Below are positions 3,870 through 56,437 of a DNA stretch of 64,000 nt, one piece after another; the stretch's first letter is position 1; every line of letters begins with the position of its first letter. The notes under the pieces are model-generated. The model worked only from the letters and a program-made list of their open reading frames with translations, was not told where the DNA came from and did no database searches. A program made the translations under genes and the position numbers. The stretch is from an uncultured Acidobacteriota bacterium (GTDB taxonomy: Bacteria; Acidobacteriota; JAQAZP01): NCBI GenBank assembly GCA_963836075.1, contig CAWIIB010000001.1, positions 384,001 to 448,000 of the forward strand, in the 5' to 3' direction.

Positions 3870-5081
3870 ATGACCACGGTGGCACTGAGCCATGACCAGG
3901 GTCTGGCCGCCCTGCCCTTTGACCTTGACGACTCGCAGGTGATCAGCCGGTTCACCGCAGCGGTGCGGAAATCGCTGGACCTGCTGAAGTGGGGGCCGCA
4001 GTGCCGCGGCCGCACCGTGCTGATCAAGCCGAACCTGGTCCGGACTTTTGAAGGCAAACCGGGCAACACCACCGACCCCCGGGTGCTGCTGGGGCTGGTG
4101 CTGGTGCTCCGTGACCACGGGCCGTCAAAGATCATGATCGGCGAAAACCCCGGCTGCGGCGTCTCTTCGGCCTCGGGGTTCCACGACTCGGGATGCAACC
4201 GGATCGCCGAGATCAGCGGCGTAGAGCTGGTTCCCTTTGACAGCGTGCCCTGCCGCAGAGTGGAGATCCCCGGCGGCCTGCTGCTCGGCCGGGCCGCCAT
4301 TCCCGAGCCCTGGCTGGACGCCGACATCGTGATCAACCTGCCCAAGATGAAGACTCACCTCCACGCCGGTGTCTCCCTGGGGATCAAGAACCTCCACGGC
4401 ATCCTGGTGGACGAGGACCGCTACTTCTTCCACCGGGTGGACGTGCACCAGAAGATGGTGGACCTGCTGAAGATCAGGACCCCGGACCTCACCCTGGTGG
4501 ACGCTGTGCTGGCCATGGAAGGCCAGTCGCCCTTTTTCGGCCGGGAGCGGGAGATGGACCTGCTGGCCGCCGGCACCGACCCGGTGGCGGTGGACGCGGT
4601 CTGCTGCAGCGCCATGGGCTTCGATCCCGATGAAATCAATATCATCCGCCTGGCCGGCAACCAGGGTCTGGGTCAGATGGACCTCCAGCGCATCGAGGTG
4701 CGGGGCCCGCGGCTGGAAGAGGTCAGCGCCCGCTTCCGCCGCGGGGTGATCAGCTCCGCCGGGGCCTACCCCGGGGTGACGGTGCTGGAGCTGGGGGCCT
4801 GCGACGGCTGCCTGTCCAGTGTCCGTCATTCCCTGGACCGCTTGCACTACGAGGGGAAGATCGAGGAACTTGCCCCGTTCACCGTGGTCACCGGCATGCC
4901 GTGCCGCAAACTCCCGGCCGCACTGGAGCAGGCTGGCGACAAGAGCGATATCTGGTTCATGGGCGACTGCACCGCCAGTATGATCTACCGGCAGTCCACC
5001 CGCACCGCCCGCGGCTGCTTCGTGCCGGGCTGCCCGCCGCACTCCTTCGACCTCTACAAGCGGATCACCGGCCACAGCTGA
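3870..5081 (+). CDS. DUF362-domain protein with C-terminal Cys-rich (putative Fe-S) module
   Basis: VLIKPNLV, TTDP, INLPKMKTH, SLGIKNLHG, DPVAVDAV; C-terminal GACDGC...GDC...PGCPP. Confidence 0.8.
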   Translation: MTTVALSHDQGLAALPFDLDDSQVISRFTAAVRKSLDLLKWGPQCRGRTVLIKPNLVRTFEGKPGNTTDPRVLLGLVLVLRDHGPSKIMIGENPGCGVSSASGFHDSGCNRIAEISGVELVPFDSVPCRRVEIPGGLLLGRAAIPEPWLDADIVINLPKMKTHLHAGVSLGIKNLHGILVDEDRYFFHRVDVHQKMVDLLKIRTPDLTLVDAVLAMEGQSPFFGREREMDLLAAGTDPVAVDAVCCSAMGFDPDEINIIRLAGNQGLGQMDLQRIEVRGPRLEEVSARFRRGVISSAGAYPGVTVLELGACDGCLSSVRHSLDRLHYEGKIEELAPFTVVTGMPCRKLPAALEQAGDKSDIWFMGDCTASMIYRQSTRTARGCFVPGCPPHSFDLYKRITGHS

Positions 5082-6293: not shown

Positions 6294-9200
6294 ATGTCAG
6301 CAGATCATATCAAGGAACCGTACCGCCCGGCCAACAAGATACGCTTCGTCACCGCCGCGTCGCTCTTTGACGGGCACGATGCCAGTATCAACATCATCCG
6401 CCGCATGCTGCAGGCCGGGGGCGCCGAGGTGATTCACCTGGGCCACAACCGCTCGGTGGCCGAGATCGTCGACGCCGCGGTGCAGGAGGACGTGCAGGGC
6501 ATCGCCGTCAGCTCCTACCAGGGCGGGCACCTGGAATTCTTCAAATACATGATCGACCTGCTCAAGGAACGGAGCTCGTCGCACATCCTGGTCTTCGGCG
6601 GCGGCGGCGGGGTGATCATCCCCGAGGAAATCGAGGAGCTGGAGTCCTACGGCGTGGCCCGGATCTTTTCACCGGACGACGGCCGGTCCCTGGGACTGCA
6701 GGGGATGATCAACCAGATGCTGGAGGCCTGTGACTTCCCCGTGGCCACCGAACCGGCCAAGTGGTTCGACAACGCCCTGGAACGGGATCCCCAGGCCGTG
6801 GCCCGGCTGCTCACCTGCCTCGAGGATTCCGAAGACCCCGACCGCCAGCTCTTCGGCGAGACGGTGCGGTCCTGGATCGAGGAGCAGCGCCCCGGCGTGG
6901 TTCCCGTGGTGGGCGTCACCGGCACCGGCGGCTCGGGCAAGAGCTCACTCACCGATGAGCTGGTTCGCCGCTTTCTCGCCGATTTCCCCAGGACCAGCGT
7001 GGCAATCCTTTCCGTCGACCCCTCCAAAAAGAGAACCGGCGGCGCGCTGCTGGGCGACCGCATCCGGATGAACTCGGTGAGCACATCAATGCCGCTGGGC
7101 AACCCCCGGCTCTACATGCGCAGCCTGGCCACCCGCACGGCAAACAGCTCCATCAGCCACTCGCTGGCCGATGCGGTGAAGGTGGTGCAGGCGGCGGGTT
7201 TCGACCTGGTGATCCTGGAAACCGCCGGCATCGGCCAGTCCGACGCCGAAGTTGTGGACCTGGTGGACGTGGCGGTCTACGTCATGACTTCGGAATACGG
7301 CGCCTCCACCCAGCTGGAAAAGATCCAGATGCTGGACTACGCCGACCTGGTGGTGCTGAACAAGTTCGAGAAGCGGGGATCCCAGGATGCGTTGCGCGAC
7401 ATCCGCAAGCAGTACCGCCGCAACCATTTGCTCTGGGAGACCCCGGACGGGCAGCTGCCGGTCTACCCCACCATCGCCAGCCAGTTCAATGACCCAGGGA
7501 CCAACCGCTTCTATTCCCACCTGGTGTCCGCCGTGGCGGAAAAGACCGGCGTCGACTGGTCCACCGCGCCGGTGGAGGACGAGACCGACCCGCAGAAAGT
7601 GACCATCATCCCCCCCGACCGCCAGCCCTACCTGTCGGAGATCACCGAAAACAGCCGTGAGCAGCGGCGCTGGATCGAGGAGCAGGCGGACATTGCCCGG
7701 CGCCTTTACCAGCTGGACGGGACGCGGCGCGTCCTGGCGGCCCACGAGGGGGAGAAGCAGCTGAAGATCTCCAGCGAAGACGGCCGGGGCAGTGTGGAGA
7801 TCCGCCGCCGCAAGGTCTCCCCCGACGTCCTCCAGGCCATTGAGGAGGAGATCGCCGAGCTGGAGAAACTGCTGGCTCCCCAGTGCCGGGAGACTGCTGG
7901 ACAACTGGCCCAAAGCCGTGGAGGCCTACCGCCAGGAGAAGATGGTGACCAGGGTCAGGGACAGGGAGATTGTCACCGAACTTTTCAGCACCTCGCTCTC
8001 CGGGCTGAAAATTCCCAAGGTGGCCCTGCCCCGCTACCGGGACTGGGGTGATATCCTCTCCTGGATCCTCACTGAAAACGTGCCCGGGGCCTATCCCTTC
8101 ACCGCCGGGGCCTTCCCCTTCCGCCGGGTGGGTGAGACCCCCACCCGGATGTTCGCCGGCGAGGGGACACCGGAACGGACCAACCACCGCTTCCACTACC
8201 TGGCCAGCGGCCAGCCGGCCACCCGGCTCTCCACCGCCTTCGATTCGGTGACCCTCTATGGCGAGGACCCGGACGAACAGCCCGATATTTACGGCAAGGT
8301 CGGCAACTCGGGCGTCTCCATCTGCACCCTGGACGACGCGAAGAAACTCTACTGCGGTTTCGACCTCTGCGCCCCCAACACGTCGGTGTCCATGACCATC
8401 AACGGCCCGGCGCCGATGATCCTGGCCATGTTCTTCAACACCGCCATCGACCAGCAGGTGGAACTGCACCTGCGCCGCACCGGCGGGTGGGAAGAGGCCG
8501 AAAAGAGCATCGAAAAGGAGTTCGCCGCGCTGGACCTCCCCCGCCCGGTCTACCGGGGCCAGGACCGGCCCGACGGCGACCGCGCCCTCGGCCTGGGCAC
8601 CCTGGGCATCAGTGGTGACCAACTGCTGGACCCCGAGACTTACAACCGGATCCGGGAAGCGACCCTCAAGGTGGTGCGGGGCACCGTACAGGCCGATATC
8701 CTCAAGGAAGACCAGGCCCAGAACACGTGCATTTTCTCCACCGAGTTCGCCCTGCGGATGATGGGCGACATCCAGCAATATTTCATCGACCAGGCGGTAC
8801 GCAACTACTACTCGGTCTCCATCAGCGGCTACCACATCGCCGAGGCCGGCGCCAACCCGATCTCCCAGCTGGCCTTCACCCTGTCCAACGGCTTCACCTA
8901 CGTGGAGTATTACCTCAGCCGGGGGATGGAGATCGACCAGTTCGCCCACAACCTCTCCTTCTTCTTCTCCAACGGCATCGATCCGGAATACTCGGTGATC
9001 GGCCGGGTGGCCCGGCGGATCTGGTCCACGGCGATGAAACACAAATACGGCGCCGGCGAACGGAGCCAGAAACTGAAGTACCACATCCAGACCTCGGGGC
9101 GCAGCCTGCACGCCCAGGAGATCGATTTCAACGACATCCGCACCACCCTCCAGGCGCTCTACGCCCACTACGACAACTGCAATTCGCTGCACACCAACTC

Positions 9201-9797: not shown

Positions 9798-11024
9798 ATG
9801 AACGAATCCGTGGCCGGCCGCCGATCGGTCCTGATCCACTACAGTGAAATCGGTCTCAAGGGTGGGAACCGGAAATTCTTCGAAAGGGTTTTCCGGGAAA
9901 ACCTGTTGCGCACCCTCGCCGGAACCGGCCATGGCGGGCTGGAGTGGCGCCGCGGCCGATTCGTGCTGCAGCTGCAGGGCGAATCCCTGGAGCAGGAGAT
10001 CCTGAGCCGCCTGGCGCGGGTCCCCGGCGTGGCCTATTACGCCCTGGCGGTCCACGTGGAACTTGATCAGGACCTGGCTGCGGTGACCCGGGCCGCAGTC
10101 CAGCTCTGCGTCGGCGACGACGTGCGCTCCTTCCGCATCGCCACCCGGCGGTCGGTGAAAAGCTTTCCGCGGACCTCCGCCGAGGTGAACGCCCTGGTTG
10201 GATCGGCGGTGGTGGCGGCCACCGGCTGGACGGTGAACCTGGGCGGGCCGGACCTGACCTGCCACGTCGAGCTGTTCGACCGCTGGGCGCTGCTCTACAC
10301 CAGCCGGCAGGAAGGCGTCCGCGGGCTGCCTGTGGGAACCAGCGGCAAGGCGGTGGCGCTGATCAGCGCCGGCATCGATTCTCCGGTGGCGGCCTACCGC
10401 ATGATCTGCCGCGGCTGCCGTGTCTTTTTCGTCCACTTTCACAGCATGCCCTACACCGGCCAGGAAAGCGTGGAACAGGCGGCCGGGCTGGTGCGCTGTC
10501 TCACCGACCTGCAGAACGGCGCCCGGCTGCACCTGGTCCCCTTTGCCGAGGTCCAGCAGCTGATCATCGCCTCCACCCCACCGGACCTCCGGGTCATTCT
10601 CTACCGCCGATCCATGCTGCGCATCGCTGAACGGGTGGCCCGGCACCACCGGGCCAAATGCCTGGTCACCGGCGAAAGCCTGGGCCAGGTGGCGTCCCAG
10701 ACGCTGGAAAACATCGCGGCCATCCAGGATGCCGTGCAACTGCCCATTCTTCGACCGCTGATCGGCCACGACAAGGAATCGATCATTCGCGAGGCGCGGG
10801 AGATCGGCACCTACGACCTCTCGGTGGAGCCCCACGACGACTGCTGCAGCTACCTGCTGCCCAAACGGGTGGAAACCAGGGCCGATGCGGAACGCGTGCG
10901 GGAGGCCGAAACGACGATCACCGATCAACTGCAGGAACAGGAGCGGGGAGCCCTGAAATCCGAGCAGCGGCGCACCATCGCACCGTCGTGGATCAGGACC
11001 GCAGACGAAACCGTGTCGTCTTGA
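9798..11024 (+). CDS. thiI: tRNA 4-thiouridine(8) synthase ThiI (THUMP + PP-loop, no rhodanese domain)
   Basis: HYSEIGLKGGNR, GLPVGTSGK, LISAGIDSPVA, TGESLGQVASQT, DCC. Confidence 0.92.
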   Translation: MNESVAGRRSVLIHYSEIGLKGGNRKFFERVFRENLLRTLAGTGHGGLEWRRGRFVLQLQGESLEQEILSRLARVPGVAYYALAVHVELDQDLAAVTRAAVQLCVGDDVRSFRIATRRSVKSFPRTSAEVNALVGSAVVAATGWTVNLGGPDLTCHVELFDRWALLYTSRQEGVRGLPVGTSGKAVALISAGIDSPVAAYRMICRGCRVFFVHFHSMPYTGQESVEQAAGLVRCLTDLQNGARLHLVPFAEVQQLIIASTPPDLRVILYRRSMLRIAERVARHHRAKCLVTGESLGQVASQTLENIAAIQDAVQLPILRPLIGHDKESIIREAREIGTYDLSVEPHDDCCSYLLPKRVETRADAERVREAETTITDQLQEQERGALKSEQRRTIAPSWIRTADETVSS

Positions 11025-22517: not shown

Positions 22518-23996
22518 CTAGAAACGATACACCAGGGTCAGTTTTGCCCCCTTGAACGGGTCCTCGTAGCGGCACTGGCCGCCGGAACAGACCTGGCCGC
22601 CCTTGAGCGACCCGACAAAAAGCGTCCCCTGCAGGGAGTCGGTGATATTGGCCGTCAACTCGCCTCCCCAGAAATTGTTGTAGTCCCAGACAGGCACCTG
22701 GGCATACTGGTACAGGGCGCTGAGAATCCAACGTCCGGAAAAGGAATAACCGATGGAGGATTCGATTTCGGTGTTGCAGAAGAAGGGGTCCCGGGCATAC
22801 TTGATCAGGCCGTCGATGATGATGCTGTCCCGCTCAAAGACGTCGATGGTCGCGGCCAGCGATGCCTTGTCCTCGTTCTTGCCGTCCACCTCGGTCCGCT
22901 TGCCGGCCCAGACGTGGATATAGCCGATGCCGAAGAGGTCGTCCTGCTCGATCCCGCCGTAATAGTGCTCCACAATAGAGCCGTTGAGCAGGTTCTCGAA
23001 CCGGCTGTAGCTGACGTAGAGGTCTGAACCGGTCTTGTTGATGTAGTAGCTGGGTTTGACCCGGAACCCGCGCGTGTCGTCCGGAGCGAAGAACTCGTCC
23101 AGCCGGTCGGCATTGGGCGGGTTGTTGTGATTGTACTTGAACCGCTGGTAGTCCTTGTATTCGGCCAGCAGGGTGAACTCCCCCTGGTAGTAGGTGGCGG
23201 CCATGTAAAGGCCGTGGCCCTTTTCCCCGGAGGGTTCCAGCTCGCTGTCCTTGACCGCGTATTCCCCGTAAAAGTCGAGGTGATCGAAGATGCCGGGTAT
23301 GTCAACAAAGAAGCTGCCCAGGAGATGCTCACCCTCGATCCAGTCGTCGGTCTTGTCGTCGGAGTAGACACCGGTGACGCCCAGCCTGATATCGCGGGGC
23401 AGGAGAAAGGCCGCCCGCAGACCGCCGATCCAGTCCTGTTCGTCGGTGATCTTGTTGTCCACGAAGCCGCCCAGCAGATCGAATTCAAAATGCTTGAAGG
23501 TAAACGAGGTCCGTGCGCCGCGGATGGTGCTGTCGAGGAAGATCACCGGGTCGTAGAGGACACTGAGGGTCATGCCCCGCTCGAAGGAGGTGAAGAAGTC
23601 GCCGGCCACGCCGTAGAACTTGTCGCCGGAATAGTCGATGAACGCCCGGTCCACCTGGACGAAGTCATTGAACTCCCGGTACGGTTCGCGGGGGAAGAAA
23701 TTGGCGATGTTGAGGGTCAGGCCGATGGTCACCCGGCCCTTGTGCAGGTAGCCGTCGAAAATATTGCGATACTGGTTTTCTTCCCCGGCGTTGAACATCT
23801 CCTGGTTGTAGCGGTATTCAAAGGCGTTGCTGCCCGTGAAATTCCACCCGTCGTACCAGCTGTCGTCCGTGTCGTCCTCACCCTCGTCACCAAGGACAGG
23901 TCCGCTCACGGCAAGGAGGGGCAGAAGGAACAGGGCAATGATCATCAGGAAACGGCCGGGCCGGATCGCCCGTTTGAACAGATCAGCCACGATCAT
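22518..23996 (-). CDS. Outer-membrane beta-barrel protein, DUF6029-like
   Basis: Signal peptide, amphipathic beta pattern, AEYKDY..F, NNPP, C-terminal GGQVCSGGQCRYEDPFKG and terminal Phe (LTLVYRF). Confidence 0.75.
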   Translation of the reverse strand: MIVADLFKRAIRPGRFLMIIALFLLPLLAVSGPVLGDEGEDDTDDSWYDGWNFTGSNAFEYRYNQEMFNAGEENQYRNIFDGYLHKGRVTIGLTLNIANFFPREPYREFNDFVQVDRAFIDYSGDKFYGVAGDFFTSFERGMTLSVLYDPVIFLDSTIRGARTSFTFKHFEFDLLGGFVDNKITDEQDWIGGLRAAFLLPRDIRLGVTGVYSDDKTDDWIEGEHLLGSFFVDIPGIFDHLDFYGEYAVKDSELEPSGEKGHGLYMAATYYQGEFTLLAEYKDYQRFKYNHNNPPNADRLDEFFAPDDTRGFRVKPSYYINKTGSDLYVSYSRFENLLNGSIVEHYYGGIEQDDLFGIGYIHVWAGKRTEVDGKNEDKASLAATIDVFERDSIIIDGLIKYARDPFFCNTEIESSIGYSFSGRWILSALYQYAQVPVWDYNNFWGGELTANITDSLQGTLFVGSLKGGQVCSGGQCRYEDPFKGAKLTLVYRF

Positions 23997-24582
23997 CTTC
24001 CCCCTCCGCACTGCTGCTGTCCGTGTCGGCTCCCTCGCCGGCGCCGGGAAGCAGTTCGAGAATCTTGTTCCTCAGTTCCACTTCGTCGCCGGTGTTGTAG
24101 CCGAGGTGGGTGTAGACCACCTTGCCATCCAGGTCGATCAGCGCCAGGTAGGGCAGAATGGCCCGGGGGTTGTAGAGCTTGACCACCTGCTGTTCCGAAT
24201 CGAGCAGCACGGGGTAGCTGTACCCCTTGCGCCGGACCAGCGGTTTTACCCCGGGGATGTCGCTGGGCCCGTCGGTATTGATGGCCAGGATCTCCAGCCC
24301 GCGGTCCTTCAACTCTTCATAGAGTTCCTGCAGCTTGGGCATCTCCTTGCGGCACGGTTTGCAGGCAATGTTCCAGAAGGAGATCACCACCACCTTTTCC
24401 CCGATGAGATCGCTGAGCCGGTGGGTAGTGCCGTCGGTGGCCTTGAGGCTGAAGTCGGCGGTCTTCTTCGAACCGCCGGCGGCCTGGGCCGGGGCGGCCG
24501 CAGCCAGCAGGACAACCAGCGCCAGGGCCAGCGTCAGACCGATGCCGACCAGGTTGGACTCGTGCTTCCTCCACAACTTCAT
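23983..24582 (-). CDS. Exported TlpA/ResA-family thiol-disulfide oxidoreductase
   Basis: Signal peptide; DFSLKATDG, SFWNIACKPCRKEMPKLQ, YPVLLD, LIDLDGKV. Confidence 0.88.
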   Translation of the reverse strand: MKLWRKHESNLVGIGLTLALALVVLLAAAAPAQAAGGSKKTADFSLKATDGTTHRLSDLIGEKVVVISFWNIACKPCRKEMPKLQELYEELKDRGLEILAINTDGPSDIPGVKPLVRRKGYSYPVLLDSEQQVVKLYNPRAILPYLALIDLDGKVVYTHLGYNTGDEVELRNKILELLPGAGEGADTDSSSAEGEDDRG

Positions 24583-24647
24583 TCCGGATGTTCCTTTCTC
24601 GCATGACCGCGTCGGGCATCGTCTCGAGCCCGTTCCGGTCTCAGGTA

Positions 24648-25217
24648 TCAGAGCAGTGACTCGACGGCCGCCCGGATTTCTTCCTCGTCGTAGCCGATGA
24701 AGATGTAGCGAACAACGAAGCCCCGGTCGATGACCACGTTCACCGGCAGGGCCCCCATGCCGTAAATCTGGTCCACGGTGCCCTGGGTGTCGGCCAGCAC
24801 CGGGAAGGTGATGCCGTATTCGTCGGCCCACTCGGCGGCCTGTTCCACGGTGGCCCGGTCCCCGCCGATGACATCGTCGTCCACCAGCACCTCAAGGGTG
24901 ATGAAGCCCTGGCCCACGTACTCCTGGTAGAACGCCTCGGCCTCTTCAGCCTCCTCCCGGCAGGGAACGCACCAGAGGGCCGAGAGGGTGAGCAGGATCA
25001 CCTGCCCCCGGTAGTCCGACATGGTGGTGGTGCCGCCGTACTGGTTGGGCAGGTTGAAGTCGATTGCCGGTTCGCCCACGCCTACAACGCCGCTCGGGCC
25101 CACCACCTCTTCCTTGCAGCCAGCGGTGAAGACCATCCCAACCAGCAGAAACAGGACGGCCATCCTCCGGATTCCGGAAGGACGGAACGGTATGAAAGTC
25201 AATTTTTCTCTGCGCAT
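24648..25217 (-). CDS. TlpA-family redoxin lipoprotein
   Basis: Lipobox FTAGC; DFNLPNQYG, WCVPCREE, FPVLAD. Confidence 0.85.
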   Translation of the reverse strand: MRREKLTFIPFRPSGIRRMAVLFLLVGMVFTAGCKEEVVGPSGVVGVGEPAIDFNLPNQYGGTTTMSDYRGQVILLTLSALWCVPCREEAEEAEAFYQEYVGQGFITLEVLVDDDVIGGDRATVEQAAEWADEYGITFPVLADTQGTVDQIYGMGALPVNVVIDRGFVVRYIFIGYDEEEIRAAVESLL

Positions 25218-25360
25218 ATCCTCTATTCCCCGCCTTTCAGGCTCCCCAAGGACCTGGTCATCAATCTGTATATAGATCTTCCGGCAAACGACAAAATCTC
25301 TCCACAAAAGCAACTCCTGTTGGAGTTTAGCCGGAATTCACGGGCCATGTCAATCAACAA

Positions 25361-27320: not shown

Positions 27321-27350
27321 TTGACCTTTTGTCCGCCCCTTTGCTACTAT
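27321..27350 (+). promoter_or_regulatory. Putative sigma70 promoter of tRNA-Leu
   Basis: TTGACC-18 nt-TACTAT, about 28 nt upstream of the tRNA. Confidence 0.6.
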
Positions 27351-27378
27351 TTCACCTCGCTCTTGTGGCGACATGGGT

Positions 27379-27466
27379 GCCGGAGTGGCGGAATTGGCAG
27401 ACGCACGGGACTCAAAATCCCGCGGGCCCTAGGCTCGTGTCGGTTCGACCCCGACCTCCGGTACCA
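27379..27466 (+). tRNA. tRNA-Leu(CAA)
   Basis: GCCGGAG acceptor stem pairing with CTCCGGT, D-loop GGAATTGGCAGAC, anticodon arm CGGGA-CTCAAAA-TCCCG, long variable arm, GTTCGAC T-loop, discriminator A and encoded CCA. Confidence 0.96.
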
Positions 27467-27517
27467 GTTTTTTCCCTTCTGCCGGCCGGGCCGCCTCCCG
27501 GAAAAACACGGAGCCCG

Positions 27518-28309
27518 TTGGAATTGAAACAGGCAGCATTCTCCCGGTCCAGACGATCCGTCCAGCTTCTCACGATGCTCGTCCTCGTCCTGCTGCTCCT
27601 GCATCCCGGATGCGGTGAACCGGAGCCCGGCGGGCCGGGCCGCACCGCCGGCAGCCGGGCCGGCCTGGACGATGCCGGTGAGCTGCCGCCCCCCCGGATC
27701 GAGTTCGATTCCCTGGAGCACGATTTCGGTGACATCGAAGATGATCAGCCGGTGAGCCACCGCTTCACCTTCCACAACCGCGGCAACTCCCTGCTCTTCA
27801 TCCGCAACATCCAGCCCTCCTGAGGCTGCACGGCGGCCGTGGTCACGGCCCGCAGCCTCTCCCCCGGCGAGCAGGGTTCGCTGGAGATCACTTTCGACGG
27901 CAAAAAGAGGAGCGGCCGGCAGGAGAAGACCGTGCGGGTGAGCAGCAATGACCCGGGACAGGAAACCGTGGTGCTCACCATCAGGGCCTACATCCACCGG
28001 GCGCTGATCCTCAAGCCGGAAATTGCCCGGGTGGGGCCCCTGGGGCCCGATGAAGAACGGGTGGTCCGGCTGGAACTGCTGATCGAGGATCCGGCAAACG
28101 TAACGGTCAGCCGGATCAGTTCCAGCGCACCCTGGGTCGGCGGCCGCATCGTGGACGACCCGCAGAACGAGGGGGGCATGATCCTCGAGGTGAAAGTCGC
28201 TGCCGGGCGGCCGCCGGGGAAGTTTCAGGAGACCCTCACCCTGCACACCACCAGCCCGGAGATGCCGAAAATCGATATCCCGGTCACCGGCATGGTGCTG
28301 GACAAGTGA
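27518..28309 (+). CDS. DUF1573-type Ig-like lipoprotein; predicted selenoprotein (Sec at TGA 27821-27823)
   Basis: Track ORFs 27329..27823 and 27839..28309 are in the same frame. Reading through gives HDFG...HRFTFHNRGNSLLFIRNIQPS-U-GCTAAVV...LSPGEQGSLEITFD...KTVRVSSNDP, the DUF1573 xSCGCT motif with its first Cys as TGA. Lipobox-like LHPGC. Start (TTG 27518 or 27524) uncertain. Confidence 0.85.
27822..27859 (+). promoter_or_regulatory. Bacterial SECIS-like stem-loop
   Basis: GAGGCTGC (27822-29) pairs with GCAGCCTC (27852-59); GGCCGT (27835-40) pairs with ACGGCC (27845-50); apical loop GGTC begins 17 nt after the UGA. Confidence 0.78.
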
Positions 28310-28319
28310 TCTTCCCCGA

Positions 28320-28895
28320 TCAGTCGAAGTCAGTTTTGACGTACAGCGGGTAGAAGGGATACCGGGCGGCCAGCTTCTCACCGCCGCCGGCCTGGCGGTC
28401 GACGATGCAGATCACCCCCAGCACCTGGAGCCCGGCGCCCTCGATCTTCTCCAGGGCCCTGAAAATGGCCCCGCCGGTGGTGACCACGTCTTCCACGATG
28501 ACCACGCCGGCTCCCTCCGGGGGAGCGTTCTCGATGTCCAGGTTTGTGCCGTGTTTCTTCGGCTCCTTGCGGACGATGAAGGCCTGCACCGGGTCTCGCG
28601 GCAGTTGTTCGCTGCGCATGGCCGCGGTGGCCGCGATGGGATCGGCGCCCAGGGTGGGTCCGCCGATGGCCGCCACCGGCGTACCGGCGGACTCGATCTC
28701 CCCGAGGATATCCATGATGGCGTCGGCAATGAGCAGGCTGCCCCGCGGGTGGAGGGTGATGTTGCGGCAGTCAAAATAGTAGTCCGAGACCTGCCCCGAA
28801 CTGAGCACGAAACGGCCCTTGAGAAAGCAGCGTTCGGAGATGATCTGACGCAGTTCCCGCCACCCCTCTGTTTCGCGATACCGAGCTTCACTCAT
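28320..28895 (-). CDS. pyrE: Orotate phosphoribosyltransferase
   Basis: FVLSSGQVSDYYFDCR, GGPTLGADPI, VRKEPKKHG, VEDVVTTGG, VDRQAGG. Confidence 0.94.
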   Translation of the reverse strand: MSEARYRETEGWRELRQIISERCFLKGRFVLSSGQVSDYYFDCRNITLHPRGSLLIADAIMDILGEIESAGTPVAAIGGPTLGADPIAATAAMRSEQLPRDPVQAFIVRKEPKKHGTNLDIENAPPEGAGVVIVEDVVTTGGAIFRALEKIEGAGLQVLGVICIVDRQAGGGEKLAARYPFYPLYVKTDFD

Positions 28896-50617: not shown

Positions 50618-51373
50618 TCAGAGATAGCTGGGGTCCGCGGGTTTCCAGTCCTCCTGGGACATGTGAGGCTCCTGCTGCCGGTTCTGGTAGAGGTCCTTCA
50701 TCGTCTCCTCGTCCATGGTCTTCAGCTTTTCGATACCCTCGTCGAACTTGCCGGCGGCGATGTTCTCCACCATGGCCTTCAGGTGCTCGGCCCGCGGGGA
50801 GATCTTGCTGCCGTAGATCCGGCGCACCATCTGGGCGATGTGATACTGGGCCATCTCCGCCATGCAGCGGGATGTGCAGAGGCCGCACTGGATGCAGTCG
50901 AAGGAGAGCTCGTTGGCCTTCTTCAGGTCTCCCTGCTTGATCGCCGACACGTAGTCCATCACCTGGACGTCCATGGGGCAGACCTTGGTGCAGGCGTTGC
51001 AGGCCACGCAGCGGAAGAGCTCGGGATAGAGTTTGTGCACCTCGGTGGCGTCGGCGCTGATCTCCTCGAAGTTGTAGCTCGACCTGATGGCGGGGAAGAA
51101 CGGGATCTGGGTCAGATACATATCCGGTTCCACCACCGTCTGGCAGGCCAGCCCCACCCGGATGTGGTAGTCGCCGGGCTTGCGGTAGACCGTGCCGCAG
51201 GCGCCGCAGATGCCGCCGCGGCAGCCGCAGCCGCGGATGTATTTGTACCCGGCATATTCGAGGGCCTTCATGATGGTCAGGGAGTCGGGCACGTCATAGC
51301 GCTTGCCCATGACATAGATGGGAATCAGTTCGGCGTCCATGCCCTCGGTGGTTTTGGCGGTTTCGTCGCTCAT
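50618..51373 (-). CDS. Iron-sulfur subunit (2Fe-2S + 2x4Fe-4S; SdhB/TfrB-N-like)
   Basis: CGCRGGICGAC...LAC, CVACNACTKVCP, CIQCGLCTSRC. Confidence 0.85.
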   Translation of the reverse strand: MSDETAKTTEGMDAELIPIYVMGKRYDVPDSLTIMKALEYAGYKYIRGCGCRGGICGACGTVYRKPGDYHIRVGLACQTVVEPDMYLTQIPFFPAIRSSYNFEEISADATEVHKLYPELFRCVACNACTKVCPMDVQVMDYVSAIKQGDLKKANELSFDCIQCGLCTSRCMAEMAQYHIAQMVRRIYGSKISPRAEHLKAMVENIAAGKFDEGIEKLKTMDEETMKDLYQNRQQEPHMSQEDWKPADPSYL

Positions 51374-51435
51374 CTGGACCTCTTGGTAGTATGAAGTACT
51401 GACTATCTACTCAAAAATAAAGCTCGGCAACCGGT

Positions 51436-52320
51436 TCAGGCGCTGCGGATGAACTTCCGGCTGTCCAGCAATTCCCTCGAAGCGGGTTCGTTCAGTTCGA
51501 AACGGCAGACCTTTTCCTCCAGGCCCAGGGCCACGGCCAGCAACTGGGTGAAGTAGTAGGTGGGTATCCCCTCGAACCCCTCGGACTTCGCGGCCATGGC
51601 CTCCTGTTTCCGTCCCAGGTTGAACTCGCAGAGCGGGCAGCTGGAGACCAGGGCCTCGGCCCCGTGCGAGCGGGCGGAATGGAGTACGTGGCGAGCGCTG
51701 TTCAGCGCCTCCTCGGGGTGACTCACCATGGTGTACGAACTGCAGCAGTCGACGGAGGCGGGAAAGGAGACCGCTTCGGCCCCCAGGGCCTCGATGAACT
51801 CCTTGAACAGGGTCGGCCGGTCGGTGGGTTCGATGGCCACCTCTCGGGGTCGAAGGAGTGTGCAGCCGTAGTATGGCGCCACCTTCAGCCCGGTGAGCGG
51901 CACCTTGACCTTTTCCCGCACGGTGTCCCAGCCCACGGTGTCGCGGAGGAAGGGCAGGAGGTGCAATACCTCCACATCCCCCTCGTAGTCCGGTTCCTCT
52001 TCCATGAAGCTGTTGATGGTGAACCGTTTTTCCTCATCCTCGCGCATCACCTGGTTGGCCCGGGCCAGGGTGTTGTAGCACATGGAACAGGCGGTGAGCA
52101 CCTGGTTCTCGCCCTGCTCCCGGACGCGGATCAGGTCGCGCACCGGTGCCAGGAGGTTGATCAGGTTGTCATCGGCCAGGGAGAAGACCGCTCCGCAGCA
52201 GTTCCAGCGGGGCAGTTCCACAAGGGAAACACCCAGGGCTTCGAGGGCGGCCACGGCCGTGCGGTCGAGGTTGGCGGCCTTGGTTTTCAGGGTGCAACCG
52301 GGATAGTAGCTAACGTTCAT
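51436..52320 (-). CDS. Heterodisulfide reductase subunit B-like CCG-domain protein
   Basis: YYPGC, WNCCG, CSMC, YYGC.LLRP, DCCS, SCPLC.FNL, YFTQLL. Confidence 0.9.
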   Translation of the reverse strand: MNVSYYPGCTLKTKAANLDRTAVAALEALGVSLVELPRWNCCGAVFSLADDNLINLLAPVRDLIRVREQGENQVLTACSMCYNTLARANQVMREDEEKRFTINSFMEEEPDYEGDVEVLHLLPFLRDTVGWDTVREKVKVPLTGLKVAPYYGCTLLRPREVAIEPTDRPTLFKEFIEALGAEAVSFPASVDCCSSYTMVSHPEEALNSARHVLHSARSHGAEALVSSCPLCEFNLGRKQEAMAAKSEGFEGIPTYYFTQLLAVALGLEEKVCRFELNEPASRELLDSRKFIRSA

Positions 52321-52329
52321 CGTCACCCC

Positions 52330-53744: not shown

Positions 53745-56315
53745 TCAGCGCCCGGGACTGGCGGAAAGATGCTGGAGGATTTCGTCCTTGCCCGACGCGA
53801 TCCCCACCACCTGTTCGTCGTTGTCCAGCTCCAGCAGGATCGGCACGTCGAGGCTGCCGTCCACCGACCGCTGCACCCGTTTCCGCAGCAGCGGGTAGAA
53901 CTGGGTGAACATGTCGCGGCCCTTCTTCTCTTTCAGGTTGTAGACCTGGCGTTCGCTGAAGGGAAGAACGTCGTTGATGCTGGAGATGGTCTCGGTGCAG
54001 GCAGTGCAGTTGGGCATGGTGAACAGCTTCAGGGTCCGGCCACCGTTGCCGCCGGTCGGCGCCGCCGGCAGCAGTTCCTCTCCGGGCAGTGCCGCCGCGG
54101 CCACAGTGGCCGCCTGCTCCACCGGCTGCTCCACCGCCCCCGGCGATAGCGGCCCGGCGTCCTCGCCCACCCGCGCTTTGTGAGAGTGCGGCAGGCCCAC
54201 CGGGCACTGCTCGAAGGTGGTGCGCTCGAAATATTCCTCGCGCTTGCCCTTGTTCCAGTTGCCCACCGGGCGGTAGTAGCCGACGATCCTCGAATAGACC
54301 TCGGTGTCGGCCCCGCAGTCACCGCACTGGAACTGCTCACCCTTGAGGTAACCGTGGTCGGGACAGACCGAAAAGGTGGGGGTGATGGTGAAGTAGGGAA
54401 TGCGGTAGTTTTCGGCGATCCGCTTGACCAGCGACTTGCAGGCCTCCAGGTCATCGATGGATTCACCGATCATCGAATGGAAGACGGTTCCGCCGGTGTA
54501 GCGCGACTGCACCGGCTCCTGGAGGTCCAGCGCCTCGAAGAGGTCGCTGGTCAGGTTCACCGGCAGCTGGGTGGAATTGGTGTAATACGGGTCCTCCTCG
54601 CCGGCGGTGACGATCTCGGGGAACTCCTGTTTGTCGATCTTGGCCAGGCGGTAGGATGTCGACTCGGCCGGTGTGGCCTCGAGGTTATACATGCTGCCGG
54701 TCTCCTTCTGGAAGGTGACCAGCACGTCACGCATGTAATCGAGCACCTCGATGGTGAAATCGGCGGCGTCCTGGTGCTCGATGCTCTTGCCGAGGAAGTT
54801 GAGACAACACTCGTTCATCCCCACGATGCCGATGGTGGAAAAGTGGTTGTCCCAGCTGCCGAGGTAGCGCTGGGTGTAGGGGAAGAGCCCCTCATCCATC
54901 AGCTTGGTCACCACCCGCCGCTTGGTCTCCAGCGAGTCGCGGCCGATTTCCAGCAGCCGGGTCAGGTTGCCGTAAAATTCGTCCCGGGTCTCGGAGATGT
55001 ACCCGATGCGGGGCAGGTTGAGGGTGACCACCCCGATGGAGCCGGTGAGTTCGGCGGCGCCGAACAGCCCCCCGCCCTTCTTCTTCAGTTCCCGCTTGTC
55101 CAGCTGGAGCCGGCAGCACATGGAGCGCACGTCCCCCGGCTTGAGGTCGCTGTTGATGAAGTTCTGGAAATAGGGGGTACCGTATTTTCCGGTCATCTGG
55201 AAGAGCAGCGTGGCATTGGGGCTGTCCCAGTCGAAGTCACGGGTGATGTTGTAGGTGGGAATCGGGTAGGGGAACCCGCGCCCGTCGGCGTCACCCTCCA
55301 TCATCACTTCGAGGAACGCCCGGTTGACCACATCCATCTCTTTCTGGTAGTCGCCGTAGGTGGTATCCAGTTCCATGCCGCCCACCAGGGCCGGCTTGTC
55401 CTTCAGGTCTTCGGGAACGGTCCAGTCGAGGGTGATGTTGGTGAACGGCGCCTGGCTGCCCCAGCGGGAGGGCGTGTTGACGCCGAAGACAAAGCTCTGC
55501 ACGTGCTGCTTCACGTCTTCGAAGCTGAGGTTGTCCACGCGCACAAAGGGGGCGAGATAGGTGTCAAAGCTGGAGAACGCCTGGGCCCCGGCCCACTCGT
55601 TCTGCAGCACGCCGAGGAAGTTGACCATCTGGGCGCTGAGGGTGCTGAGATGTTTGGCCGGCCGGGAACTGATCTTGTTTTCCACCCCGCCCAGACCTTC
55701 CCGGATCAGCTGGTCCAGGCTCCAGCCGGCGCAGTAGCCGGAGAACATGGAGAGGTCGTGGATGTGCATCTCTCCGTCGCGGTGGGCGTCGGCGATCTCC
55801 TTGGTGTAGATGTGGTTCAGCCAGTAGTTGGCGGTGACCGTTCCCGAGTTGTGCAGGATCAGCCCGCCCAGAGAGTAGTTGACGTTACTGTTTTCCCGGA
55901 CCCGCCAGTCGGCCTGGCTGAGGTAACCGTCCATGGTGCTGTGGATGTCGAGGAGCATGCTCCGCGCGTCGCGGAGCCGGGCGTGCTGTTCGCGGTAGAG
56001 AATGTACGCCTTGGCCGTCCTGGCGTGGCCCTCTTCAATGAGAACCTTTTCCACCAGATCCTGGATCTGCTCCACGGCCGGAATGCTCCGCTTGTGAAAG
56101 CTGGTCAGCACCGCCTCGCAGACCTTGTTGGAAAGCCGGACCGCTGCCTCCCGGTCGGTCCCCCCCACGGATTTCGCTGCCTTGAAGATGGCATCCGTGA
56201 TCCGCTCCTGGTCGAACGGAGCGATATTTCCATTCCGTTTCCGTATCTGATGCTTGTTCAGCAGGAACCGGAATTTGGGCATGACGTTCCCGTTGCTCGC
56301 CTCTTCATGACCCAT
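53745..56315 (-). CDS. nrdD: Class III ribonucleotide reductase with ATP cone and a C-terminal CxxC glutaredoxin-like domain
   Basis: ATP cone IRKRNG..FD..RI..AI...VEQIQDLVE; HIHDL, YCAG, SMCCRL, NLEATPAE, Zn ribbon CPDH...CGDC, glycyl-radical loop YSRIVGYYRP; ATG 56315 after GGAGG. Confidence 0.94.
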   Translation of the reverse strand: MGHEEASNGNVMPKFRFLLNKHQIRKRNGNIAPFDQERITDAIFKAAKSVGGTDREAAVRLSNKVCEAVLTSFHKRSIPAVEQIQDLVEKVLIEEGHARTAKAYILYREQHARLRDARSMLLDIHSTMDGYLSQADWRVRENSNVNYSLGGLILHNSGTVTANYWLNHIYTKEIADAHRDGEMHIHDLSMFSGYCAGWSLDQLIREGLGGVENKISSRPAKHLSTLSAQMVNFLGVLQNEWAGAQAFSSFDTYLAPFVRVDNLSFEDVKQHVQSFVFGVNTPSRWGSQAPFTNITLDWTVPEDLKDKPALVGGMELDTTYGDYQKEMDVVNRAFLEVMMEGDADGRGFPYPIPTYNITRDFDWDSPNATLLFQMTGKYGTPYFQNFINSDLKPGDVRSMCCRLQLDKRELKKKGGGLFGAAELTGSIGVVTLNLPRIGYISETRDEFYGNLTRLLEIGRDSLETKRRVVTKLMDEGLFPYTQRYLGSWDNHFSTIGIVGMNECCLNFLGKSIEHQDAADFTIEVLDYMRDVLVTFQKETGSMYNLEATPAESTSYRLAKIDKQEFPEIVTAGEEDPYYTNSTQLPVNLTSDLFEALDLQEPVQSRYTGGTVFHSMIGESIDDLEACKSLVKRIAENYRIPYFTITPTFSVCPDHGYLKGEQFQCGDCGADTEVYSRIVGYYRPVGNWNKGKREEYFERTTFEQCPVGLPHSHKARVGEDAGPLSPGAVEQPVEQAATVAAAALPGEELLPAAPTGGNGGRTLKLFTMPNCTACTETISSINDVLPFSERQVYNLKEKKGRDMFTQFYPLLRKRVQRSVDGSLDVPILLELDNDEQVVGIASGKDEILQHLSASPGR

Positions 56316-56359
56316 ACTCAACCTCCAGAAATAGTACGCCATCCGATGACGAAAGCCCG

Positions 56360-56437
56360 TACACATATATTGTTATTATTTGGGGGATATATACTATATC
56401 TTGTGCCTAAGGATAATAGTGCCACCATATCTTGCTG
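56360..56437. promoter_or_regulatory. Three tandem NrdR-box-like sites upstream of nrdD
   Basis: TACACATATATTGTTA (56360), ATACTATATCTTGTGC (56391), CCACCATATCTTGCTG (56422), exactly 31 bp apart, against the consensus acaCwAtATaTwGtgt. Confidence 0.75.

Follow-up and report, generated by a model that had tools for sequence, protein, structure and literature searches.

A DUF1573 Gene with an In-Frame UGA Codon as a Probable Divergent Member of the OS_HP2 Selenoprotein Family

Introduction

In the stretch of DNA analysed here, which is 64 kb long and is referred to as the window, two open reading frames follow each other in a single frame and are parted by one TGA triplet. This raised the question of whether the TGA terminates a gene or is decoded as selenocysteine (Sec) inside a longer one. 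A first-pass annotation, made from the sequence alone, had taken the latter view and proposed one Sec-containing protein of about 263 amino acids. The proposal was supported by the present analysis. The in-frame TGA, the continuity of one domain across it, the alternation of Cys and TGA at the same site in homologs, a conserved hairpin and the purifying selection on both halves of the gene (dN/dS) are direct observations. Taken together, they make it very probable that 27518-28309 is one gene, encoding an exported Ig-like protein into which Sec is inserted at UGA codon 102 by means of a SECIS element.

The Reading Frame and Its Internal TGA

The open reading frames 27329..27823 (+) and 27839..28309 (+) lie in the same frame, parted only by the TGA at 27821-27823. 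When this TGA was read as U, the translation ...LLFIRNIQPS-U-GCTAAVVTARS... was obtained, which reproduced the readthrough peptide NIQPS-U-GCTAAV described in the first-pass annotation. Read through the internal TGA, the whole coding sequence spans 27518..28309 (+) and consists of 263 codons and a TGA stop at 28307..28309 (+), the place at which the orthologs P0002 and L002 end as well. The internal TGA (27821..27823, +) is the proposed selenocysteine codon; it specifies residue 102 and stands at the first position of the motif S-U-G-C-T, of which the partner Cys104 is encoded at 27827-27829. The GC3 value in the frame of the gene is 0.85 before the TGA and 0.86 after it. Elsewhere in the window, TGA is an ordinary stop codon, ending 35 of 49 greedily called ORFs in a list that includes some antisense ORFs.

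The choice of the start codon is uncertain, the candidates being TTG at 27518, an in-frame TTG at 27524 and ATG at 27575. A GGAG sequence is located at 27510-27513, upstream of the TTG at 27518. Since a tRNA-Leu ends at 27466, the gene cannot start before 27467. This tRNA-Leu(CAA), at 27379-27466 (+), lies directly upstream of the gene and is followed by a run of T residues, while a promoter-like site was noted ahead of it at 27321-27350. A tRNA-Leu likewise precedes the gene in the loci L001 and L002. At the other end, the convergent pyrE gene ends at 28320, 11 bases past the stop codon of the window gene.

Homologs and the Codon at Residue 102

A protein search identified 117 homologs. The seven closest matches (P0002-P0007 and P0011), with 54-95% identity, all begin with M/VVTA(R/S)SLSPGE, that is, at the earliest start codon beyond the TGA, and are therefore fragments produced by gene callers. 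No homolog was found to end at the TGA, a case raised in the first-pass annotation, and the proteins starting just after it are the split orthologs that carry the TGA. The nearest full-length relative is P0008, a protein of 398 amino acids with Cys at the site (RASCGCT). It shares 38-39% identity with the window protein over 82% of the query and has the signal peptide, the lipobox-like motif and the linker in common with it.

A scan of 185,579 species-representative genomes, in which the aligned codon was read from tblastn hits, yielded 80 loci that were kept, with 113 domain hits. The aligned codon is a stop in 11 loci (L001, L002, L004, L005, L006, L009, L012, L017, L047, L051 and L080), and in all 11 this stop is TGA. 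The remaining 102 domain hits have Cys, encoded by TGT in 54 and by TGC in 48 cases. With the window included, 12 TGA codons thus stand against 102 Cys codons. That Cys would align with the TGA had been expected in the first-pass annotation; in fact, every one of the 102 non-TGA domain copies has C-G-C at the site. The TGA loci are assigned to Acidobacteriota, Zixibacteria, Thermodesulfobacteriota, Ignavibacteriota, Nitrospirota and unclassified metagenome-assembled genomes (MAGs). In nine of the 11 the gene ends with TAA or TAG, so that the internal TGA is the sole TGA of these genes; the exceptions are L001 and L002, which end with TGA.

The gene order of the window recurs in L001, from an Acidobacteriota MAG, and in L002, both of which retain the TGA. 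It comprises DUF6029, two TlpA/ResA-like redoxins, an RlmI-like methyltransferase, CarD and the tRNA-Leu, followed by the window gene, PyrE, DUF456 and a TMEM260-like glycosyltransferase. For the 69 codons that precede the TGA, pairwise dN/dS against these two orthologs is 0.15-0.18, and for the 161 codons that follow it 0.33-0.34. Values of 0.15-0.34 indicate purifying selection, and consequently both halves of the gene are maintained as protein.

These data bear on the explanation that the gene is a pseudogene, or that a TGC or TGT codon for Cys was turned into TGA by a sequencing or assembly error. TGA is indeed one base away from both codons, and a second TGA in L002 with no special fold after it indicates that such changes or errors occur. 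However, two syntenic orthologs and nine more distant loci share this TGA, the split recurs at an identical point in seven database orthologs, both halves show the dN/dS values given above, and the hairpin that follows the TGA is kept at synonymous sites. An inactivated or misread Cys gene is therefore very improbable, and a functional gene with a decoded UGA is preferred.

The second in-frame TGA of L002, at 6526-6528 of that locus, is located at the codon for the lipobox Cys (A-A-G-[TGA]-G-E-P-E-P), which is TGC in the window and in L001. Sec at this position was considered and rejected, the 60 nucleotides after this TGA folding no better than shuffled sequences (z +0.29). A mutation or an assembly error is likelier here than a second Sec.

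Architecture and Predicted Structure of the Protein

The N-terminus of the window protein has the features of a signal peptide (27518..27613, +), with a basic n-region (K4, R10, R12 and R13), a hydrophobic core and a lipobox-like ...LLLLHPG-C, of which Cys32 is encoded at 27611-27613. G at position -1 and C at position +1 are present, with Pro at -2 and His at -3; a His at -3 is atypical for the lipobox consensus. The counterparts are A-P-G-C in L001 and V-F-G-C in P0008, and a G-C followed by G-E/S-P-E-P-G-G is kept in L001 and in the Cys form P0008. From these sequence features, the protein is predicted to be exported and is probably lipid-anchored at Cys32 through the atypical, lipobox-like H-P-G-C.

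A DUF1573 Ig-like domain (Pfam PF07610), comprising residues 61-158 (27698..27991, +), spans the TGA. The match has an E-value of 4.6e-29 and 100.8 bits, compared to a gathering cut-off of 26.1, and covers profile positions 1-97 of 98, so that similarity extends over both sides of the TGA, as had been anticipated in the first-pass annotation. It is followed by a second Ig-like beta-sandwich domain at about residues 160-262 (27995..28303, +), for which AlphaFold predicts strands between residues 163 and 260 with high pLDDT. No Pfam family covers this second domain at E <= 0.1; it is conserved in the orthologs.

An AlphaFold2 model of the window protein was obtained from an alignment of 71 sequences. 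Its mean pLDDT is 89.7, and most of the DUF1573 domain is above 93. The model consists of a signal-peptide helix (residues 13-27), a disordered Pro/Gly-rich linker and the two beta-sandwich domains. In it, the S-U-G-C segment forms a turn between the strands 93-100 and 105-109. Near-invariant columns among the 71 homologs are N87, C102, C104, T105, P116 and G117, with the columns C102 and C104 at least 90% conserved.

A search of the PDB by single sequence gave no match. Ig-fold matches were obtained with Foldseek (E 1e-8 to 6e-11) and as profile hits to PDB chains (8e-9 to 2e-23); the structure searches returned generic Ig-like matches only, namely HYDIN repeats, PDB entry 2qsv and cadherins. 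The HYDIN/ASH/PapD-like Ig domains (PF22544, PF15780) and 2qsv from Porphyromonas gingivalis have the same beta-sandwich fold as the window protein. In contrast, the HYDIN-type proteins and 2qsv are structural or ciliary proteins in which no C-G-C is aligned, and the TM-scores of 0.3-0.36 over two domains denote a likeness at the level of the fold only.

The Hairpin after the TGA

The G of the UGA is the first base of a SECIS-like hairpin of 38 nucleotides (27822..27859, +), which was assigned from folding, synonymous resampling and ortholog identity. The lower stem of this hairpin, of 8 bp, pairs 27822-27829 with 27852-27859, and its upper stem of 6 bp pairs 27835-27840 with 27845-27850, with one further G-C pair. 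The apical loop GGUC is located at 27841-27844 and begins 17 nt after the UGA. Refolding thus recovered the hairpin of two stems, with GGUC at 17 nt from the UGA, as it had been drawn in the first-pass annotation. In a 42-nt segment, the hairpin has a folding energy of -25.6 kcal/mol (z = -2.96), which was equalled by 2 of 200 dinucleotide shuffles.

The sequence has a G+C content of 64%, and hairpins are for this reason cheap here. Codons were resampled synonymously in 2000 trials, with the peptide held fixed and the codons drawn from the usage of the window itself. The energy of the hairpin was reached in 5 of the 2000 trials for a 45-nt segment and in 8 of 2000 for the 42-nt segment. The 66-nt context is indistinguishable from shuffled sequences (z = -0.47), which places the signal in the hairpin rather than in the GC-rich region as a whole.

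The constraints given for bacterial SECIS elements are a loop of 3-9 nt, an upper stem of 4-16 bp, a minimum free energy of -7.5 kcal/mol or lower, a G within the first two loop positions and a spacing of 16-37 nt between UGA and loop (PMC13188914). The bacterial SECIS test proposed in the first-pass annotation had a positive outcome, the window hairpin lying within all of these limits with its GGUC loop, its 6-bp upper stem, its spacing of 17 nt and its energy of -25.6 kcal/mol. When implemented as a rule, however, the constraints pass 3 of 12 TGA sites and 16 of 102 Cys sites (Fisher p = 0.32). The TGA sites that pass are those of the window clade (the window, L001 and L002), and the nine TGA loci outside this clade fail. 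Since Cys sites pass and most TGA loci do not, the rule alone discriminates poorly; the same source states that a subset of bacterial SECIS elements departs from the model (PMC13188914). A looser hairpin rule passes 8 of 12 TGA sites versus 25 of 102 Cys sites, and the z-scores of the two groups differ modestly (Mann-Whitney p = 0.019). No SECIS match was found with Rfam, either in the whole window at gathering thresholds or in 27700-28000 at E <= 10, where only a tRNA and chance matches were returned.

The window and its orthologs L001 and L002 have identical upper stems and loops; in L002, the lower stem is weaker. None of the seven codons of the upper stem carries a synonymous change, compared to a background of 35-39% (P about 0.05 and 0.03 for the two orthologs). 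Compensatory changes were seen in none of the 16 pairs among the three sequences that carry this hairpin.

It has also to be considered that the UGA is simply a stop codon, leaving an N-terminal fragment of about 101 residues alone, or a separate downstream part translated from GTG at 27839, with the hairpin as a by-product of GC-rich sequence. The shuffle-like folding of the 66-nt context and the 16% of Cys sites that pass the SECIS rule agree with this explanation, as does the lack of selA, selB, selD and tRNA-Sec within the 64-kb window; moreover, termination at UGA is expected under selenium scarcity. On the other hand, one beta-sandwich domain extends over both sides of the TGA, which falls between the strands 93-100 and 105-109, so that a stop at 27823 would halve the sandwich and neither fragment would be a complete fold. 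In addition, the downstream piece has no signal peptide, Cys is present at the exact position in 102 homologous domains, and the hairpin is an outlier compared to synonymous resampling. Termination as the normal fate of this UGA is thus improbable, although slightly less so than a pseudogene or an error.

For the preferred reading as one selenoprotein gene, the following sequence of events is proposed. The hairpin, which starts one base into UGA codon 102, would act as a bacterial SECIS. SelB carrying Sec-tRNA(Sec) would bind the G-led apical loop and insert selenocysteine at codon 102, and translation would run on to the TGA at 28307, where a hairpin of this kind is lacking. The N-terminal signal peptide would direct the export of the product.

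Relation to the OS_HP2 Family

The first-pass annotation had left open whether the family is already catalogued as a selenoprotein family. It is: OS_HP2, which corresponds to pfam07610 with the motif UxC or UGC, is represented in NCBIfam by the model NF041425, "OS_HP2 family (seleno)protein". The study of the Olavius symbiont metagenome reported six new selenoprotein families, OS_HP2 among them (Zhang & Gladyshev 2007, PMC1976440). A table of the 2008 ocean-sampling study has the entry "OS_HP2, pfam07610, UxC" and gives 2 selenoproteins versus 354 homologs with Cys (PMC2398784), and reviews of 2022 and 2026 list a "DUF1573 domain-containing protein, UGC" (PMC9312934, PMC13188914). The selenoprotein family, its motif and the Sec/Cys pair are therefore already published, the family since 2007, and the window gene is a divergent member. 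Most of the novelty assumed in the first-pass annotation is removed by this earlier cataloguing. A literature search on "DUF1573" returned no functional study.

With C in place of U, the window protein scores 77.7 bits against NF041425, compared to a cut-off of 100, with residues 66-159 aligned to profile positions 4-97 of 98. Among the 10 proteins from TGA loci that were scanned, only L006 (101.4) and L009 (100.2) pass the cut-off. L004, L005, L012, L017, L047 and L051 score 86-99.5, L001 reaches 79.3 and L080, a fragment, 59; the Cys form P0008 has 71.1 bits. The window protein is thus related to OS_HP2 as NF041425 defines the family, but lies outside the cut-off of the model.

A tree was calculated from 109 domain sequences and 104 columns by a quick search. 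Two separate groups contain Sec forms only, one made up of the window, L001 and L002 (SH-aLRT 99) and the other of seven sequences (98). At least 4 changes in the Sec label are required on this tree, of which the well-supported branches force one.

A hairpin UUCC(C/U)C-CGGGY-GGGGAA is common to all eight TGA loci of the main clade, at about 40 nt from the UGA on its 3' side and across the codons for I-P-P-G-G-E; in L004 it is located at 10166-10183, and equivalents are present in L005, L006, L009, L012, L017, L047 and L051. Its third codon positions are almost invariant, and it is absent in Cys homologs with similar peptides (L013 and L061). Covariation was found in none of its 10 pairs. This hairpin is a candidate SECIS, located just beyond the published spacing of 16-37 nt.

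The window protein resembles OS_HP2 in its Pfam domain, in the motif S-U-G-C-T with Sec at the first Cys position, in its predicted export and in the far greater abundance of Cys homologs. In contrast, the window hairpin has its loop 17 nt from the UGA, while the main clade has a different hairpin about 40 nt downstream; the window protein has two domains compared to three in the main clade; and it belongs to a separate, well-supported branch. The third domain, of about 105 amino acids, is present in L001 (at 4627-4947 of that locus), P0003-5, P0007, P0011, P0008 and the main clade. Two domains only are found in the window protein, L002, P0002 and P0006. The Cys-type DUF1573 proteins, like P0008 and the copies of Bacteroidota, Ignavibacteriota and Planctomycetota in L003-L079, have the same fold and an S-C-G-C-T turn; they differ in having TGT or TGC in place of TGA, and often tandem DUF1573 domains or other fusions.

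The window clade, comprising the window, L001 and L002, may represent a separate recruitment of Sec at the first Cys of C-G-C, with a SECIS of its own. Such an independent origin is a tentative and rather doubtful proposal. It is allowed by the tree, in which the well-supported branches force one change only.

Possible Role of the U-G-C Turn

In the model proposed here, Sec102 and Cys104 would form a reactive pair at the protein surface, in the tight turn S-U-G-C-T that connects two beta strands. This turn would be a redox-active selenylsulfide or selenol-thiol centre that faces the periplasm and cycles with thiols. C-G-C and C-x-C redox motifs occur in the shuttle disulfide of Erv2-type sulfhydryl oxidases and in CGC peptide mimics of protein disulfide isomerase. 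Like the proposed centre, these have two chalcogen residues one Gly apart and belong to an oxidising compartment; their folds are unrelated, however, so that the comparison may serve as a chemical analogy alone.

Alternatively, the protein may be a selenoprotein in which the U-G-C turn binds a soft metal or metalloid, like Cu(I), Hg, As or Zn, and is not a redox catalyst. C-x-C motifs bind Cu(I) in some chaperones. The locus L012, from the OS_HP2 clade, adjoins ArsR, two LMW-phosphatase/ArsC-like genes and an SBF/Acr3-like transporter. In addition, metal-related families stand beside OS_HP2 in the tables of the reviews, namely YHS, CobW-like, mercuric reductase-like and cation ATPase proteins (PMC9312934, PMC13188914). 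However, no metal-related neighbour is conserved across the loci, and Sec usually replaces a catalytic redox Cys, as stated in one of the reviews (PMC9312934). Furthermore, the DUF1573 domain is fused to cytochrome c domains in 3 of the 117 homologs (P0052, P0055 and P0060). Because of this usual role of Sec and of the cytochrome c fusions, a redox centre is the most likely role of the turn and is favoured over chelation of a metal or metalloid, which is nevertheless to be taken seriously as an alternative.

Genomic Context

No selA, selB, selD or tRNA-Sec was detected within the 64-kb window when 47 ORFs were searched with NCBIfam for sel genes and Rfam and tRNA scans were performed. Further selenoprotein genes in the window were sought among 15 in-frame TGA sites flanked upstream and downstream by sequence of high GC3. 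The two candidates that were inspected, at 2002 and 52330, were rejected, both being adjacent genes in one frame.

A conserved operon partner of the gene was not found beyond the window clade. The two upstream TlpA/ResA-like redoxins are syntenic in three close loci, where they are on the opposite strand and behind housekeeping genes. In the window, this pair (23983-25313, -) is arranged in tandem and codes for exported thioredoxin-fold proteins with the motifs CKPC and CVPC; it adjoins the gene for the DUF6029 protein (22518-24011). Both have weak NCBIfam matches to "ResA-like WAxxUGC motif-containing protein" and are Cys forms in the window.

At 50618-52326 (-), HdrC-like and HdrB-like (CCG-domain) genes were observed, which adjoin an anaerobic ribonucleotide reductase gene (53745-56366). 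Neither HdrA nor a further Sec candidate was seen beside them. The Hdr-like genes and the anaerobic ribonucleotide reductase point to an anaerobic lifestyle, which fits a lineage that uses Sec.

Concluding Remarks

Genes of this kind are split by standard gene callers, and the database entries of all seven closest orthologs are C-terminal fragments. Since NF041425 scores them below its cut-off, members of this lineage may stay misannotated. The gene would add to the known selenoprotein family a divergent lineage, probably related to Acidobacteriota, that has a form with two domains and a SECIS in another position. The strict alternation of Sec and Cys at the first position of a near-invariant C-G-C is the best clue to a reactive centre in DUF1573, and on this clue DUF1573 domains would not be merely structural. 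If Sec was indeed recruited separately in the window clade, the repeated switching from Cys to Sec at one site would mark the turn as a true catalytic redox centre. Such a centre would be of a structurally new kind, on an Ig-like, non-thioredoxin scaffold in the cell envelope.
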